Shown: positions 745-59,202 of the stretch, piece after piece
Layout: every line of letters begins with the position of its first letter
Numbering within the stretch: position 1 is the first letter of the stretch
IMG/VR virus record: IMGVR_UViG_3300028588_000020
Coordinates: 6,035-70,034 of that record
DNA: 64,000 nucleotides
Direction: 5' to 3' (one strand)
Source: a virus
Translations under genes and position numbers: made by a program
Notes under the pieces: model-generated
The model's input: only the letters and a program-made list of their open reading frames with translations
The model's database searches: none
What the model was told of the DNA's origin: nothing

Positions 745-3700
745 GATCCCGGTCGGGGCCGATCTTTCGACCCTGAATCAGGATCTCAACAAGTTCGGCC
801 AGGATGCCAAGCGAGTACTGAACAGCCTGGGCGGCTCGGCCACCATTGACACGACCGCCGCCACGAAAAGCCTGGAAGATCTCGAAAAGACGATCGAGCA
901 GGTCAACAAGGCGCTCGCGGGCACCAGCTCGAACGAGGTAGGCAGCAAGACACTGGACAGCCTGTCCGATGGCCTGGAAGAAGCGGTCAAGAACGCCAAC
1001 GCCCTGTCCAACGCGATGGGTGGCGCCGGCAGCAAAACCGCCTCGGGCATGGCCAAGACCGTGGCCGAGACGCGCAAACTGCTGGCCGATCTGGAGAAGG
1101 CCAAGAAGCTGCAGGCCACCTTGGCCAAGCAGGGTCATACCCTGTCCACCTGGCAGGCTGGCGAGCTCGAAAAAGACTTCGCGTACATGCGCGACAACGC
1201 CACCGGCGCGGCCAAAAAGCGCCTGGGCCAGTTCGGCAGTCTTAACTCGCTGTCATCGAACTGGCGCAGCCTGGCCAGCAACGAAATGGCCGCGCGCCGG
1301 CACTACAACGACGTGCTTCGCCAACTCGGCCTGAGCGCACCTGGCGGGGCCCCGACGCCGGCATCGGAGCAGGGCGGTTTTGCCAAGTTCATGATGCAAT
1401 CCATGCGCCGCGCCGGCGCCGGGATCTTCCACGCGGCCACCCCGGGCGGCGGCGTCGGCGCGGCGATCGCGCAGGGCGCCGTGGCCGACGCGGCTGCGGG
1501 CCCCGGGATTATGTCCATGGGCGGCGGCGGCCGCCTGCTCGCCGGCGGCGCGCTGGCGCTGGGCGCCTATGGCGCCATCAAGGGTGTCTCGGCGATCGCC
1601 GGCAAGGTCAGCAGCTCCGAGGAGGAGCAAACCGCGTATTCGGACCTGCTGCGCCAGATGGGCGCCACCACCAGCACGTTCGAGGATCTGCGCAGCTCGG
1701 TGCGCTCGGCCGCGCAGGGCCTGGACCTGTCCTACGCCGATGGCGCCAAGCTGGCGCAGGCCTACGTGCGCGGCGCCGGCATCGATGGCCTGAGTGGCCA
1801 GCAGCTCACTGGCGAAATGCGCACGGCCGGCGGCTTCGGCCGTGTGCTGGGCCTGGATCCGGATGCCGGCATGGGCATCATGGGCACGCTGCGCCACAAC
1901 AAGGTGTCGAAGGACAACGCCGATAATCGCCGCTTCGCCATGATGATCGGCGAGGGCATCGCCAAGGCTGGCGTGTTCAGCAAGGCCGACGACGTGCTCT
2001 CGGCCGTGGCCAGCTACACCCAAGTGGCCACCCGCGCCTCGCTGAACCCGGCCAACACCGAGGGATACTTTGGCGCGATGTCAAACCTCATGGGCATGCG
2101 CCAGGCGGGCCTGGATCCGGCCGGCGTCGGCCAGATGCTGGGCACGGTCGACCAGTCGTTCCGCAACCCGCACGGCGAGGCGCAGCGCAATTTCCTGCTG
2201 GGCGCCCTACAGAACTCGATGCCCGGGATGAATGCGGTGGACATGGGCTTCATGCAGGATGCCGGCATGTTCGCCACCGCCGGCAAGGTGTTCGGCAAGG
2301 GCAGCGCCGCCTATGGCGCCGCCGATGAGGCCACGCGCCGGCGCTACGACGGCTACGCCTCGCAGGGCAACAACAAGACGTTCTACGATATGGCCATGGG
2401 CAACATGGCCGGCATGGGTGGCGACGATCAGCGCAAGAACATGATGGGCCTGTTCGGCCTGAACGATTCGCAGGCGGCCGCCTTGCAGAAGGCCACCAAG
2501 GCCAACGGCGGCAACCTGTCGCAGACGGTCAGCCGCCTGGGCGCCATGTATGGCGTCGATCCCACCAAGCTGGGCGATACGTCCCTGCGCCACATGCTGG
2601 AGGTGGAATACGGCGATCCGTCGAAGCTGCAACAAAAGGCCAAGTGGATGGCATCGCAGGAGCTCTCGGCCACCGAGCGCACCCAACTGGAAGGCGCGAT
2701 GAAAAACCCGGGCGAGGGCAACAGCAATCTCAAGAGCGTGCTGGTCCAGCTCGGCGCCACGCGCAACATGGAGCAGAACGAGGGCGACGATTCCCGCCGT
2801 AACACCGCCAACCTGTCGAACATGGCCAGCGATATGGCCACCAAGCTGATCCCGATAACCAACGCGATCCGCGAGGCCGTCATGGCGATCGCCAACAAGA
2901 TGACCGGCGGCGCCTTCAAGGACAAGTGGGGCAATTCTGACAAGCTCAACAGCGAGCTGCAGGGCCAGATGGAAGGGCGCACGGATCCGACGAGCCGCCG
3001 GCGCACGATCGCCCACTTCTTGCAGCGCGTGAACGAGAACGAGGGCGACTACACCCCCGAGCTGCGCACCAAGCTGCAAGCCATGTACGACGAAGCGGCA
3101 GAGGCGGCGCCGATCGACGGCAATGGCGGCAACATGCCCAGCAGCCGCGCCTCGATCAAGGACAAGGATCTGCAGGCCATGGCCAAGCAGATCGCCGAGC
3201 CCAGCAAGTACGACTCGATCTTCAAGGCCTCGGCCGCGAAATACGGGGTGGACTGGCGCGACGTCAAGCAGCTCGGGGTGCAGGAGTCGCGGCTACAGAA
3301 ATTTGCCGTCAACACCAACGAGAACGGCACCAAAGATATCGGCATCATGCAGCACAACAGCCGGTATGCCGGCGAGCGTGGCCTGACCGATGCCAATATG
3401 TTCGATCCCGAGGCGAACATCGATGCCGGCGCCAAGCTGTGGGCAGGCCTGCTCAAGGCGAACAAGGGCAACGTGGCCAGCGCGTTCAAACAGTACAACG
3501 GCAGCGGCCCGAGGGCCGAGCAATACGCCGCCAACGCCATGAAGCTGCGCGAGGCGGCGCGCGCCGCCGAGGCCGCCCCCGGGGCGTTCAGGGCCGCGCC
3601 GGCCAACCCCAAGTATGACCCGAGCAAGCCCTACGGCGTCGGCGATGCCTGGGACGAGATCTCGAACAAGGTGATGGGCACCAAGCTCCCGGCCGGCGCG

Positions 3701-3844: not shown

Positions 3845-5661
3845 AGACATTCAGCCCACGCGCCGAGGTGCGCCTGCTCAAGACTGCCCGCCGCAGCGAG
3901 CTGGGCGCCGGCCTGCAAGCGGCCGCGCGCTACCAGCAGCTCGAATCGATCGACCTTACCCCGTACCTCATGGAGCAGACGCCGATCGACGTGGTCCAGT
4001 ACATCGGCGGCGGCGCCGGCACCTGGAGCATGACGCTCGCCGATCGAATGATGCCCGAGTACAAGGAAACGCTGTACGCCCTGATCGAGCCCATGGATAT
4101 GATCGAGATCCGGATGGCGCGATCGCCGCACGAGTATCAGGGCAAGTCCGGCGCCAACAGCTACAAGCTGCCGGTGACCATGCGCGGCTTCGTCAGCAAC
4201 ATCGAGCGCCACCGTTCGATGAGCGGCGGCGCGCCGGTGCGCCGCATTCAGGTGTCCGGCCACGACTTCGGCAAGATCCTCGATATCCTGCGCATCTACT
4301 ACCTGAACAACTCGGCCATTGGCGACAACATCCTGGGCGAGCTCAAGTTCTTCCACAAGTATGCCGGCCTGGATCAGGCCAAGATCATGGGCGCAGACGA
4401 GTTCGTGCGCTTGGTGCTCGACAAGCTGATCAACCCGTTCATCGATCGCCTCACGGTCAACGCCAGCGGCGACAAGGTGGGCGCGGCCGTCGTGCGCAAG
4501 CTGGCCGCCGAGGTCAGCATCGAAGGCACGGTGTCGCCCCTGGGCGTGTCCCTGTTCAGCGATGGCTCGGTGCGCCAGTTCCTCGACCAGTTCCTCGACG
4601 TCGGCGCCTTCAACGAGCTGTTCGTGGATGACCGCGAGGATGCGTCGGTGCTGGTGGTGCGCCCCAACAAGTTCCTCAACCTGAGCAACGAGGCGATCCA
4701 AGGCGCGGCCACCCCCGCCCCCACGGCCAGCCCGGGCAAGGACAACCGCGAGGCCGAGCTGGCCGCCGCGAACGAGGAGCTGGCCAAGGCCAAGGCCGAA
4801 TGGAAGGTACAGGACGATCTCCACTGGAAGCTGCTGGCCGACACGCAGGATCGGATCAGCCGGCGCGATCAAGCGCTGGCCGCCGGCGATCGCGTCGGCT
4901 ACGAGCAGTACCAGTCCGAAGCGGAAATGATCTACCGGCGCGCGCAAACGGTGGGCGCCGAGGCCAAGGCCCTGTTCGAGAAGGTCAAGGCGGCCGAGGC
5001 CAAGGTGGCGGCGCTGCAGCCTGGCGGCACCAGCGCGCCTGCGACGCTGCCTGGCGCGGCCGAGGCGGTCGTGATTCCGGACGTCGAGATCGAGTCGATG
5101 GTGGAAGGCCGATCGGATGGCGGCGTGGCCAACTACTTTTGGGTGGCCAACAGCGGCTGGCAGGTGATGGAAGACATCACCGTCAAGCAGCTCGCCGCCG
5201 CCGGCAACGCCAAGGATTACGCCCTGTTCGATTACATCAACACCAACCCTGCGCGCTACGGTTTCCGCAAGATGGAAGTCACCAGCAGCATGGGGCCGAG
5301 CAACCAGTCCTATGGCGAGGCGCTCACGGCTGATCAGTCGGTATCGGAGACGGACAAGCGCATCGCCTGGCTCACCAAGCGCCGCAAGATCCTGGCCGAG
5401 CAGAATAAGGATAACGCGGTGCTGGAATTCGGCCACATCGCCGTGCAGGGCAACGAGCGGATCCGCCGGGGCATGTATGTGGCGCTGCAATACGGCGATT
5501 ATCAGGCGCTCTACTACGTCACCAGCGTGCGCCACCGCTACGTGCCGTTCCAGTCCTTCAAGACCATTCTTTCGTTCGAGCGCGGTACCGGCTTCGTTGT
5601 GCGCGCCCAGCGCGCGGCCGGCGCCTACCTGGCCGAACTCAACATGAAAGGCGCTGTATGA
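3841..5661 (+). CDS. Baseplate hub protein (gpD/gp27-like)
   Basis: Lies between tape measure and spike; C-terminal GNERIRRGMYV...YYVTSVRHRY motif resembles hub proteins. Confidence 0.6.
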   Translation: MKTFSPRAEVRLLKTARRSELGAGLQAAARYQQLESIDLTPYLMEQTPIDVVQYIGGGAGTWSMTLADRMMPEYKETLYALIEPMDMIEIRMARSPHEYQGKSGANSYKLPVTMRGFVSNIERHRSMSGGAPVRRIQVSGHDFGKILDILRIYYLNNSAIGDNILGELKFFHKYAGLDQAKIMGADEFVRLVLDKLINPFIDRLTVNASGDKVGAAVVRKLAAEVSIEGTVSPLGVSLFSDGSVRQFLDQFLDVGAFNELFVDDREDASVLVVRPNKFLNLSNEAIQGAATPAPTASPGKDNREAELAAANEELAKAKAEWKVQDDLHWKLLADTQDRISRRDQALAAGDRVGYEQYQSEAEMIYRRAQTVGAEAKALFEKVKAAEAKVAALQPGGTSAPATLPGAAEAVVIPDVEIESMVEGRSDGGVANYFWVANSGWQVMEDITVKQLAAAGNAKDYALFDYINTNPARYGFRKMEVTSSMGPSNQSYGEALTADQSVSETDKRIAWLTKRRKILAEQNKDNAVLEFGHIAVQGNERIRRGMYVALQYGDYQALYYVTSVRHRYVPFQSFKTILSFERGTGFVVRAQRAAGAYLAELNMKGAV

Positions 5662-21056: not shown

Positions 21057-21071
21057 TAACGCAATGCGTTA
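21057..21071 (-). promoter_or_regulatory. Palindromic operator filling the spacer of a sigma70-like promoter
   Basis: Minus strand TTGCAG-N17-TATAGT with TAACGCATTGCGTTA as the spacer. Confidence 0.8.
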
Positions 21072-31532: not shown

Positions 31533-31547
31533 TAACGCATTGCGTCA
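31533..31547 (-). promoter_or_regulatory. Operator overlapping the -35 of the leftward recombination-operon promoter
   Basis: TAACGCATTGCGTCA; minus strand TTGACG-N17-TACACT. Confidence 0.75.
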
Positions 31548-35944: not shown

Positions 35945-36169
35945 ATGCGGATTTTGATTATTGGCGGCGGCATGCTGGCGCGCGTGGCGCTGGCCGCGCT
36001 GGGATGCGGCGCGATCGCCGTTGAACCGCTGGATCTACCGTCATTCGAGATCGAGCCCTGGCGCCTGGCCGAGGTTTCCGCCTGTCCCGCCTACGATTAT
36101 CCCCGCCCCGCCAAGTGCGTGATCTCTCACCGGCCGAAGGCCCGGCCCGAGCAGCTCGAATATGGCTAG
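35945..36169 (+). CDS. Small hypothetical protein
   Basis: GGGAG RBS; MRILIIGGG start. Confidence 0.5.
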   Translation: MRILIIGGGMLARVALAALGCGAIAVEPLDLPSFEIEPWRLAEVSACPAYDYPRPAKCVISHRPKARPEQLEYG

Positions 36170-36329
36170 ATGGCTTGGCTATGTGATGGCTAAAAGGGCA
36201 AGGGATAGCGCCGGGTTACAGCCCGGCGCAACTACAAGAGAGCACCGTCATGGTCGACAAAGTGCAGCAGCAAGGCGAGCGCCTGAAAGCGCTACAAGAG
36301 CAGGTCCAACAACACTTAGGGAAAAAGCA

Positions 36330-36926
36330 ATGAGCAAGAGCAAGAACAAAATCGGTATGTACGGCTGGCTGGCAATCGCCGGCGTCATCATGGCGGGCCT
36401 GACCGCCTATCATGGCATGGACTGGCGCTGGCCAGTGGCGCTGATCTTCGGTAGCGGTGTCATGCTGCTCCAGCGCTTCAAGGTCAAGCCGGCGCTGATC
36501 GTGGTGGACGTGGTTTCCAGCTTCGCCCTGGCCGCCCTGGCCGTGATGCGCTTCGGCGACGGCCAATACGTGCAGGCCGGCCTGCTGGCGCTGCTGGTGC
36601 TGCTGGCGATCGTGAGCGCCTATGCCCAAGGTTTCCGCGTGATCCGCAAGGTCGCCATGGGCGAGAATATCCCGGGCTTCTACGGTATCGCCTGGGTCAC
36701 CTACAACGCCCCGGTCGCTTACTGTGCGCCGGTCCCGCTGAACCTGGTGATCGGCCTGGCGCGCGGCGTGTGGTTCTGGCTGCGTCACGGCTGGCGCGAT
36801 ATGGCGGTGACCACCCATGCGGCGTATGCACAGGGCCTGCAAAAGGGCCGCGAGCAGGTCGCGCAATCGTGGGGCGATGAACCCGCCAGCGCAGTGCGCC
36901 GCCAAGCCGCTACCGCACAGCGTTAA
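36330..36926 (+). CDS. Multi-pass membrane protein
   Basis: MSKSKNK start; about four hydrophobic segments. Confidence 0.65.
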   Translation: MSKSKNKIGMYGWLAIAGVIMAGLTAYHGMDWRWPVALIFGSGVMLLQRFKVKPALIVVDVVSSFALAALAVMRFGDGQYVQAGLLALLVLLAIVSAYAQGFRVIRKVAMGENIPGFYGIAWVTYNAPVAYCAPVPLNLVIGLARGVWFWLRHGWRDMAVTTHAAYAQGLQKGREQVAQSWGDEPASAVRRQAATAQR

Positions 36927-36944
36927 AAAATTGCAGAAAAGGAC

Positions 36945-36974
36945 TTGCGCGCATTGCGTTAGTCCGGTTAAGAT
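36945..36974 (+). promoter_or_regulatory. Operator-overlapped promoter of the ncRNA cassette
   Basis: TTGCGC-N18-TAAGAT with GCATTGCGTTAG operator half/near-site. Confidence 0.7.
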
Positions 36975-36980
36975 TCGTTC

Positions 36981-37737
36981 CGTTGAGTTTCAAGGCGTAA
37001 GCGCCGGGGATTCAGCGCAGGAAGCAGAATAGACCGCGAGCACTTACGGGGAGTTCGCTAGTCGTAGTCAATCCAGCATAGCGTTCCCCTAGCTGCATGG
37101 GGCTGGACCCGAAGAACGCGAGATCGTGGAAGTCATGGCCGTAACCATCGGCCGAAGCGATCTAGGTTGAGGCTCGGTTACCGTCGTTTTCGAGCCCTAA
37201 CTGATAAGCCACCACCGGAAAGGCACCACGCACTATAGTCGTGGGCGTGGACGGAGCAGGCTTATCAGTTGGGAAACCAACGAAGGAAAGCGGATACAAG
37301 GCGGCGACGCGACGGTCGGGCAGAAGCGGAAAGAACCTGCTACGACGGCTAGGCACCGTGGAAACGTGCTTTTGGGTGCGCACCGGAGACGCACGTTAGG
37401 CCGGCATGGGGATCCTCGCAAGAGGGCCTTCATGAGGTGGGGTTTCATGCAAAGCAGCGAAGGGCAAGCGCGTGTAGGACGGATAGTTGCGCCGGTCATG
37501 AAACCTCGCCCCATGAGGGCATCGGTCGGAATGGTAGCCACCAACAGGCATCTTTGCGCAGGTAAAGCAAGGGCGCGGTGGCGCTGCCGGTCGAAGCCCG
37601 CCAAGCTGCGATAGACCACGATCGAGGGCCGAGAGCCGGGTGAAGGTAGCCCGGGGGCGCCGCTTGATGCGCGGATGAGCAGGGCGAATGGCAAGCTACG
37701 GGCCTGACTTACGCCGGGGGGAAAGAACTCGGCACCA
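36981..37737 (+). ncRNA. Large ornate structured RNA A (~755 nt; GOLLD/ROOL-like size and context)
   Basis: 5' and 3' ends pair (36994-37001 with 37708-37715; 36985-36990 with 37725-37730); 24-bp and 15-bp helices; many GNRA loops; ends in ACCA. Confidence 0.7.
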
Positions 37738-37741
37738 GTTT

Positions 37742-37817
37742 CGCGGGGTAGAGCAGTTGGCAGCTCGTCGGGCTCATAATCCGGAGGTCGCAGGTTCGAG
37801 TCCTGCCCCCGCAACCA
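37742..37817 (+). tRNA. tRNA-fMet (CAT)
   Basis: CGCGGGG acceptor with C1:A72 mismatch, CTCATAA loop, TTCGAGT T-loop and encoded CCA. Confidence 0.97.
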
Positions 37818-37819
37818 GT

Positions 37820-57488: not shown

Positions 57489-57500
57489 TCACACAAAAGA

Positions 57501-57517
57501 CTAGCGCAATGCGTTAG
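57501..57517 (+). promoter_or_regulatory. Palindromic operator overlapping a promoter
   Basis: CTAGCGCAATGCGTTAG; TAGCGC-N17-TAAGAT. Confidence 0.8.
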
Positions 57518-57568
57518 TGTGGGTTAAGATCCTTTCCGTTGAAACTCAAACCGAAAAGGAAATTAACC

Positions 57569-58679: not shown

Positions 58680-59144
58680 ATGACTGACGCCACCACCGCG
58701 CGCCTGATACCCACGTTCGCCGAGCACATGGCCGACCACGACCGCTTTCATGCGATCGCCGAGCAGATTCTGGATCTGCACTACAAGAGCCCGGCCGCGC
58801 TGGCGCATTTGAAGCGCGTGCCCGAGCTGGAAAAGTTCTCGATGGGCACGCGCGGCGATCGCGCGTATATCTACTGGATCATTCGCTGGCCAGGCGGGGA
58901 ATGCGATCGCGGCAATTTCTTCGTTCCGCCCGCCTGGTTCGATGACTTCGACCCGGCCGCCATACAGGCTTTCTTGCAGGAAGCGGCCGAGAAGATGGCG
59001 CGCGAGATCGAGGCGGCCGAGGCCGAGGCCAAGCGCCGCGAGCAAGACCTGCGCGATACGATCGCCAAGGCCGAGCTGGGCAACGCCATCGCCATCGTGC
59101 GCGCTGCCGGCTTCGAGGTGCATTTGCCACTGAAAAATGACTAG
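58680..59144 (+). CDS. Hypothetical protein
   Basis: GAGGA RBS. Confidence 0.65.
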   Translation: MTDATTARLIPTFAEHMADHDRFHAIAEQILDLHYKSPAALAHLKRVPELEKFSMGTRGDRAYIYWIIRWPGGECDRGNFFVPPAWFDDFDPAAIQAFLQEAAEKMAREIEAAEAEAKRREQDLRDTIAKAELGNAIAIVRAAGFEVHLPLKND

Positions 59145-59157
59145 CGCATTGCGTTAG
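59141..59157 (+). promoter_or_regulatory. Palindromic operator overlapping a promoter
   Basis: CTAGCGCATTGCGTTAG; TAGCGC-N17-TATGCT. Confidence 0.8.
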
Positions 59158-59202
59158 TAGCTGGTATGCTTCGTTTCATTGAAAGTCAACAAGGAACGAA
59201 GC

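Follow-up and report, generated by a model that had tools for sequence, protein, structure and literature searches.

Gene context and transcription of the locus

The window, a 64,000-nt stretch of DNA with a G+C content of ~65%, corresponds to bases 6035-70034 of a 72-kb IMG/VR virus record (estimated completeness 77%) from an uncultured, myovirus-like soil phage. Baseplate, tail-fibre and lysin genes are present in the window. The region studied here is preceded by RecT, resolvase and replication-initiation genes and is followed by a small-terminase-like gene and DNA methylases. RNA A, a structured non-coding RNA of ~760 nt, lies on the + strand at 36981-37737. A tRNA-Met gene (CAU; 37742-37817, + strand), which was called by ARAGORN and matched the Rfam tRNA model with 61 bits, begins 4 nt past the 3' end of RNA A. 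A second structured stretch of ~700 nt, RNA B, occupies 37818-38524, and its folding z-scores were -6.2 for the + strand and -4.9 for the - strand. Partial homologues of RNA B were observed in the related phages L008 (~5090-5230), L010 (3517-3669 and 4522-4630) and L015 (6348-6426). The next feature is a tRNA-like gene at 38525-38598 with an 8-nt anticodon loop (38 bits with the Rfam tRNA model), in which ARAGORN reads the four-base anticodon GCAC. This gene could be a frameshift-suppressor-type tRNA or just a processing signal. Small ORFs are found from 38711 onward, downstream of RNA B and the second tRNA. The third-position G+C was flat across 36930-38600, and ~1.7 kb was therefore considered non-coding. 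A protein-coding reading of RNA A was ruled out by this flat profile and by the homologues described below, among which no ORF is conserved in frame.

A promoter was located on the + strand at 36945-36974, with the -35 element TTGCGC (36945-36950), an 18-nt spacer and the -10 element TAAGAT (36969-36974). It was not called by a generic sigma-70 scan. The operator-like word GCGTTAG (36956-36962) is inside the spacer, and the pattern GCGTTAG-N(4-9)-TANNNT occurred five times in the window against an expected 0.07. The consensus GACTWGCGC..GCGTTAG-N6-7-TAWGAT is common to four + strand sites (36945-36974, 39268-39298, 57500-57530 and 59140-59170), and the GCGTTAG sites are probably the regulon of one phage DNA-binding protein. 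Further sites of this promoter/operator system were observed at 21066, 22984 and 24350 on the + strand and at 31538, 39255 and 56040 on the - strand. GCGTTAG frequently falls within the palindrome CTAACGCAATGCGTTAG, in the spacer or at the -35 element of promoter-like sites, and GACTATATAACGCAWTGCGTTAG is common to three of the further sites. The layout of the RNA A promoter also precedes the homologues in L008, L010, L054, L011 and L014. On the basis of this conserved promoter, the transcript is predicted to start at ~36981, in agreement with the start proposed by the first-pass annotation. The predicted transcript opens with a leader hairpin, UUGA-GUU-UCAA (UUGAGUUUCAA; 36983-36993, + strand), of the form UUGAnnnUCAA, which opens the homologous RNAs too. 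The same hairpin follows three of the four consensus promoters, namely that of RNA A and those at 57511 and 59151, both of which drive protein genes.

No terminator-like site was detected by a scan of 36500-39500, including the interval between RNA A and tRNA-Met; this suggests that RNA A, both tRNAs and RNA B are transcribed together as a single unit. Parts of 36927-38600 were contained in 16 leaf-litter metatranscriptome runs. In three of the small leaf-litter runs, 14-20% of the sampled words of RNA A were present; these data are small libraries kept as contigs, and DNA carry-over is possible in the Logan contigs of RNA runs. The word matches argue for transcription of RNA A, not for its ends or its level.

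Homologues, covariation and domains of RNA A

Relatives of the small-terminase-like protein (40720-41355) with ~50% identity were found on phage contigs of 73-95 kb, and at the syntenic position each contig contains a stretch of 0.9-3.3 kb that is free of genes. Homologues of RNA A lie in these gaps in L008, L010, L011/L012, L015 and L014, and the L054 homologue was added by a metagenome scan. A homologue thus occupies the syntenic gene-free gap in six related phage contigs, and the family has seven known members. The 5' ~450 nt could be aligned for five to six phages; the 3' part differs between them in length and in the order of its modules. Outside these relatives, the searches returned little. 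With Rfam 15 at the gathering score, only tRNAs were matched in the window, and at ten homologue loci RNA A was unmatched to any family, including GOLLD and ROOL; no non-tRNA match was obtained at E<=10 (36800-39200) or at E<=1 (L054, L010 and L008). A blastn search of the region against 50,697 GenBank phages matched the tRNA alone. A 10-nt extension of the match upstream of the tRNA in Xanthomonas and Stenotrophomonas phages was rejected, as it lies in ordinary ~200-nt spacers. The protein encoded upstream at 36162-36926 had no relatives in any search, and the tail protein query gave distant cultured phages and no close viral contigs. A body pattern around the CACYATAG hairpin matched only the L008 record among viral contigs. 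The more distant small-terminase homologues (P0017 and P0019-21) belong to different integrative elements, which are without RNA A.

The fold of the single sequence was evaluated for 36981-37737. All of the motifs listed in the first-pass annotation were recovered in place, and its folding z-score check came out positive for the + strand, with a minimum free energy of -319.4 kcal/mol and a z-score of -4.85 against 20 shuffles. Against 100 dinucleotide shuffles, the z-score was -3.13, and one of the 100 shuffles was as low. The values for the - strand were -1.59 (20 shuffles) and -1.31 (100 shuffles). The fold signal of the single sequence is real, moderate and strand-specific.

Much larger signals were obtained from the homologues. 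In a MAFFT alignment of the first 280 nt, RNAalifold predicted 62 pairs, 30 of which had a compensatory double change. Across the 105 pairs of the 5' 450 nt, for which six sequences were aligned, canonical pairing was observed in 84.8% of the cells, compared with 36-46% in slid controls, in which the pairing partners were moved by 1-3 columns; compensatory double changes were found in 43 of the 105 pairs versus 12-20 in these controls. The best-supported helices were 37072-76/37103-07 (5/5 pairs) and 37032-43/37050-63 (7/9), together with the 13 pairs of the 15-bp helix of domain 2 and 37223-31/37238-46. Hence, the large, multi-domain + strand RNA that had been proposed from the letters alone was borne out by homologues with abundant compensatory changes, and so was selection on RNA rather than on DNA, for which the compensatory changes and the G-U pairs without A-C counterparts both speak. 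Some of the helices that were best in covariation ranked low in the single-sequence fold. UCCAGC/GCUGGA, for example, had an ensemble probability of 0.02, and all five of its pairs were compensatory. Single-sequence folding is a poor guide for RNA A.

Domain 1 (37032-37107, + strand) consists of the helix 37032-37043/37050-63 and the helix 37072-76/37103-07 (TCCAGC at 37072 and GCTGGA at 37102 in the DNA), which encloses the hairpin 37086-90/37098-102 with the conserved loop word GCUGCA (37092-37097). Compensatory pairs numbered 7/9, 5/5 and 2/5 in these three helices, respectively. The two stems that follow on the + strand, AGAUCG/CGAUCU (37121-26/37158-63; AGATCG at 37121, CGATCT at 37158) and GGCUCG/CGAGCC (37171-76/37191-96; GGCTCG at 37171, CGAGCC at 37191), are conserved with moderate covariation, and the U-A pair 37124/37160 swaps to A-U or G-C among the homologues. 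In L014, the most divergent of the relatives, a 70-codon ORF was called at 3932-4144, between the conserved promoter and leader and a stand-alone domain 2. It is either a small gene replacing domain 1 or a spurious ORF call.

Domain 2 (37196-37273, + strand) is a long irregular hairpin formed by the 15-bp helix 37196-37210/37259-37273, which was confirmed with one G-U pair, the internal-loop helix 37211-17/37252-57 and the hairpin 37226-30/37240-44. A covariance model of this domain (R1, built from 37155-37283) matched seven phages with E values of 4e-29 to 3e-6, and the matches include the divergent, stand-alone domain 2 of L014. The model had no match in the remoter small-terminase relatives L068-L074, in the other loci of the 3' element described below, or in 151 genomes of the order to which the host of a Nitrosospira prophage with that element belongs. 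In the model-fitted alignment, 93.2% of the cells were paired versus 22-47% in slid controls, and double changes occurred in 15 of 24 pairs versus 3-5; none of 500 shuffles reached any of the five measures. A structure-fitted alignment inflates pair counts, and the counts are to be read accordingly. As read from these alignments, domain 2 is the core module and signature of the family, and domains 1-3 are its conserved core.

The hairpin stem of domain 2 varies wholly between phages (CCACG/CGUGG, CCGAG/CUCGG and CUACC/GGUAG). The loop that it carries, CACUAUAGU at 37231-37239, contains the palindrome CUAUAG. Five of the seven members keep this loop, CACUAUAG; L010 has the altered form CACCAUAG, L015 has none, and the form CA-CUAUAG-U/C was found in the window, L008, L011, L054 and L014. 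It has 9 nt in a 2+6+1 layout, and the central CUAUAG is self-complementary. A fixed loop on a covarying stem marks a functional contact. More speculatively, the palindromic loop would be the best candidate for such a contact in RNA A, and its most economical reading, equally speculative, would be that copies of the RNA self-associate through a loop-loop (kissing) contact. The word CACTATAG was also considered as a T7-type promoter and was rejected. It occurs once in the window, and a search of the contig for a T7-like RNA polymerase gave no match, although this search was itself weak because the control genomes also gave none.

Domain 3 (37284-37426, + strand) contains the helix 37286-91/37368-73, the conserved word GUGGAAAC at 37358 (GTGGAAAC in the DNA) and a GNRA hairpin, CCUC-GCAA-GAGG (37413-17/37422-26; CCTC-GCAA-GAGG from 37414), which is CUGC-GAAA-GCGG in L054. 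It is followed on the + strand by the 24-bp hairpin at 37426-37520, whose helix 37426-37449/37497-37520 has precisely the one A-C and three G-U pairs noted earlier and a mean pair probability of 0.94. The basal ~16 bp around a CAUG core is kept with compensatory changes in L008, L010 and L054, according to a hand reading rather than a computed count. The GGUAGC module (37533-37585, + strand) contains the helix GCCACC/GGUGGC (37537-42/37577-82), which had 2, 4 and 3 compensatory changes at three positions among the homologues.

The 14-mer GGUGAAGGUAGCCC at 37639-37652 (+ strand) recurs in RNA B at 38187-38200 and is the sole similarity between RNA A and RNA B. A related word is kept in the homologues of RNA B, not in those of RNA A. 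The 14-mer was rejected as a family marker, since its matches in other viral contigs were chance matches in coding DNA. It may resemble the 3' end of 16S rRNA (GGUGAAG...AAGGUAGCC) minus 10 nt. The variation of the word in RNA B homologues (GAAAAUAGCC in L008) argues against 16S mimicry.

The conserved 3' element and the ends of RNA A

The 3' end of RNA A is formed by the element UGACUUACG-CCGGG-GGGAAAGAA-CUCGG-CACC (37705-37736, + strand; stem 37713-18/37728-33), and the same element terminates the homologues of RNA A. Twenty-two distinct instances were collected from phage and metagenome contigs, including unrelated phages with 35-65% G+C (L018, L019/L061, L022, L023, L024, L032, L033, L035, L039, L041, L044-46 and L053-55). 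The general form, UGACUUACGCCGG-NN-GGAAAG(U)AA-N-CCGGC, is ~35 nt long and intergenic; the scans gave a similar number of false matches in coding DNA, which were without the second half of the hairpin. Pair 5 of the stem was G-C in 8 instances, A-U in 13 and G-U in 1. The element has three G-U pairs and no A-C and was therefore read as + strand RNA. It often adjoins tRNAs, lying 8 nt before tRNA-Met in the window and 5 nt before tRNA-Asn in L039; in L023, it lies 75 nt after tRNA-Met. Two or three copies per cassette were found in L010, L054 and L055. Among the genomes of 185,579 species, the only true match was in a prophage of Nitrosospira sp. Nsp11 (L061), which was identical to the viral locus L019. 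No family in Rfam 15 corresponds to the element, and a literature search for its sequence returned only chance primer matches.

The element was also examined as an intrinsic terminator. This reading was rejected because CACCAGUUUC follows the hairpin in the window and the scan of 36500-39500 found no terminator-like site. A U run (CACUUUU) follows the element only in A+T-rich phages; in the window, ACCAGUUU follows. Possible roles of the element are end protection, a processing signal or a protein site, and the element alone may be a new RNA-processing or end-protection signal. Look-alikes of the tRNA T-arm (GGTGGTTCGATTCCATCC and similar words) were observed in L054 (oriented 4313-4330), L010 (~3100-3130) and L015 (~5060-5080). 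Within the homologous RNA cassettes, their positions are internal or terminal; none is called as a tRNA by ARAGORN, and they may be tRNA-like processing handles.

The first-pass annotation had described RNA A as a closed fold in which the ends pair. The words in question are present (GGCGTAAG at 36994 and CTTACGCC at 37708; GAGTTT at 36985 and GAACTC at 37725), and the complementarity of GGCGUAAG and CUUACGCC exists in the sequence, but its ensemble probability was only 0.26. The duplex energy was -12.8, compared with a mean of -12.4 for shuffled upstream sequence. More generally, the best duplex of the 5' arm of the 3' element with upstream sequence was no better than with shuffled upstream sequence, both for RNA A and for the other members. 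The end-to-end helix is missing from all homologues of RNA A; its 5' partner is not conserved, and a local 5' hairpin is found in the relatives instead. The pairing takes three bases of the conserved 3' hairpin, and the two compete. The outer GAGTTT/GAACTC pair is probably wrong, as GAACUC falls within the conserved 3' hairpin and GAGUUU within the 5' leader hairpin. Closure by the ends is thus lineage-specific at best and no better than chance. The proposed end at ~37737 fared better and fits the tRNA gene that bounds the 3' side.

Proposed maturation, alternative readings and known systems

RNA A is very probably a real, conserved structured RNA and a member of a new large phage RNA family linked to tRNA islands, as judged from the covariation and the syntenic homologues. 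We consider it fairly probable that RNA A is the first gene of an ncRNA/tRNA operon, is matured by RNase P and acts in trans. Transcription would start near 36981 and continue into tRNA-Met, RNA B and the second tRNA. Cleavage by RNase P at the 5' end of the tRNA (37741/37742) would then free RNA A; from the gene layout, this would be the most likely route to the 3' end in this phage. The terminal hairpin would protect or mark that end, and the mature RNA would act in trans as a folded RNA, as is thought for GOLLD and ROOL, rather than as a leader. Most homologues are without a tRNA, and RNase P is therefore not the general route to the 3' end.

The main rival, which is possible though doubtful, takes RNA A to be a string of smaller, independently folding modules (domains 1, 2 and 3, the long hairpin, the GGUAGC module and the 3' element) that are co-transcribed and then cut apart, as in other phage RNA islands that adjoin tRNA genes. 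The modules are indeed shuffled between phages. In L011, the 3' element comes directly after domain 3, ~535 nt from the promoter, and L008 has ~420 extra nt. In L008, L010 and L054, the long helix encloses the GGUAGC module in place of a simple distal extension; in the window, the module is outside the helix. Domain 2 stands alone before tRNA-Leu in L014, and given this arrangement and the shuffling, the transcript could be cut into smaller RNAs. The unsupported end-closing helix and the weak long-range consensus helices (37140-45/37375-80 was non-canonical in 9 of 36 cells) point in the same direction. However, only one promoter serves the whole length, and 36981-37705 is free of further promoter words, tRNAs and copies of the 3' element. 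Domains 1, 2 and 3 are colinear in five phages, and the helix 37286-91/37368-73 and the nested domains of the consensus argue for a joint fold. RNA A is best described as a promoter-to-3'-element unit of semi-autonomous domains, and the modular build of the family shows which parts are dispensable.

It is distinctly unlikely that RNA A is a cis-acting leader that controls or stabilises the tRNAs and the small ORFs from 38711 onward, for instance through antitermination or by serving as a scaffold for processing. Relatives retain the RNA without any tRNA, and known leaders come nowhere near ~750 nt and more than 100 covarying pairs. In Rfam, neither the RNA A region nor the homologue loci matched a riboswitch, T-box or leader family, and RNA B (~700 nt) sits between RNA A and the first ORF. 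What such a leader has in its favour is the single apparent transcription unit without a terminator, in which RNA A, both tRNAs, RNA B and the small ORFs are joined, and the promoter class and leader hairpin that RNA A shares with the protein genes at 57511 and 59151.

A DNA-level element, with inverted repeats acting in DNA as a replication origin, packaging site or recombination hot spot, is highly improbable. The position between the replication-initiation genes and the small-terminase-like gene would suit it, as would the shuffling of modules around the 3' element and the reverse complement of that element (GCGTAAGTC), which is the promoter-spacer word of the relatives L054 and L010. Nevertheless, folding is strand-asymmetric, G-U pairs occur without A-C counterparts, the compensatory changes preserve pairing and not sequence, and words of RNA A occur in RNA libraries; neither iterons nor an AT-rich unwinding stretch were found, and the sole repeat reported in RNA A was its own inverted-repeat match. 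That G+C-rich spacer DNA would fold in this way by chance, without selection on structure, is scarcely credible: such sequence forms long helices readily and the z-score was only -3.1 with 100 shuffles, one of them equal, but the homology is kept across phages whose flanking proteins are ~50% identical, and covariation is far above the controls.

Among known systems, the proposed 3'-end maturation resembles that of species 1 and 2 of the tRNA region of phage T4, which are stable non-tRNA RNAs that are co-transcribed with tRNAs and released by the tRNA-processing machinery. By analogy, the layout at the present locus (one promoter, no terminator, a tRNA 4 nt downstream) would fit this route. 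The T4 species are ~120-140 nt, compared with ~760 nt for RNA A, and most homologues of RNA A lack an adjoining tRNA. The gene of RNA A adjoins packaging genes, as does that of the packaging RNA (pRNA) of phi29; no sequence or fold similarity exists between the two, and no packaging RNA is known for phages with terminase-type packaging, such as this one. The loop CA-CUAUAG-U, with 9 nt and a central 6-nt palindrome, has the 2+6+1 layout of the loop of the HIV-1 dimerisation initiation site (DIS). To our knowledge, only a handful of bacterial and phage RNAs longer than 500 nt have complex conserved folds.

Among known RNAs, GOLLD and ROOL come closest to RNA A in genomic niche and size, and from the sequence comparisons RNA A is a member of neither. 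The covariance models of both families had no match in the window, in 36800-39200 (E<=10) or at the ten homologue loci. GOLLD (RF01998) is, like RNA A, a large (~800 nt), intricate phage or prophage ncRNA that is often near tRNA islands. One studied member adjoins tRNA-Met, and tRNAs can be linked to GOLLD (10.1101/2024.12.08.627333). The location of RNA A corresponds to that of GOLLD and ROOL, as it lies in a virus record with phage structural genes and with tRNA-Met 4 nt downstream. Conservation is reversed, however: in GOLLD, the 3' region is universally conserved and the 5' half is variable, whereas in RNA A the 5' ~450 nt is conserved and the 3' part is variable. ROOL (RF03087) is an ornate large RNA of phages and prophages near tRNA islands, is very abundant where measured and assembles without protein. 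It differs from RNA A in sequence and fold and is found mainly in low-G+C hosts, in contrast to the 54-62% G+C phages that host the RNA A family. Both GOLLD and ROOL, which lie beside phage tRNA genes, were recently shown to be protein-free nanocages. By analogy, RNA A might be the founder of a third, unrelated family of self-assembling phage RNAs that form a ring or cage via CACUAUAG, which we regard as unlikely; a second conserved loop holding UGCA / CUGCAG might perhaps join in this assembly. Given that the packaging module adjoins the gene and that promoters of the same class also drive genes near the virion-protein genes, such an assembly might serve virion assembly or protect the phage tRNAs. 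With a third unrelated family in the niche of GOLLD and ROOL, the placing of large folded RNAs at tRNA islands would look like a strategy to which phages have turned repeatedly, and not like two isolated curiosities.
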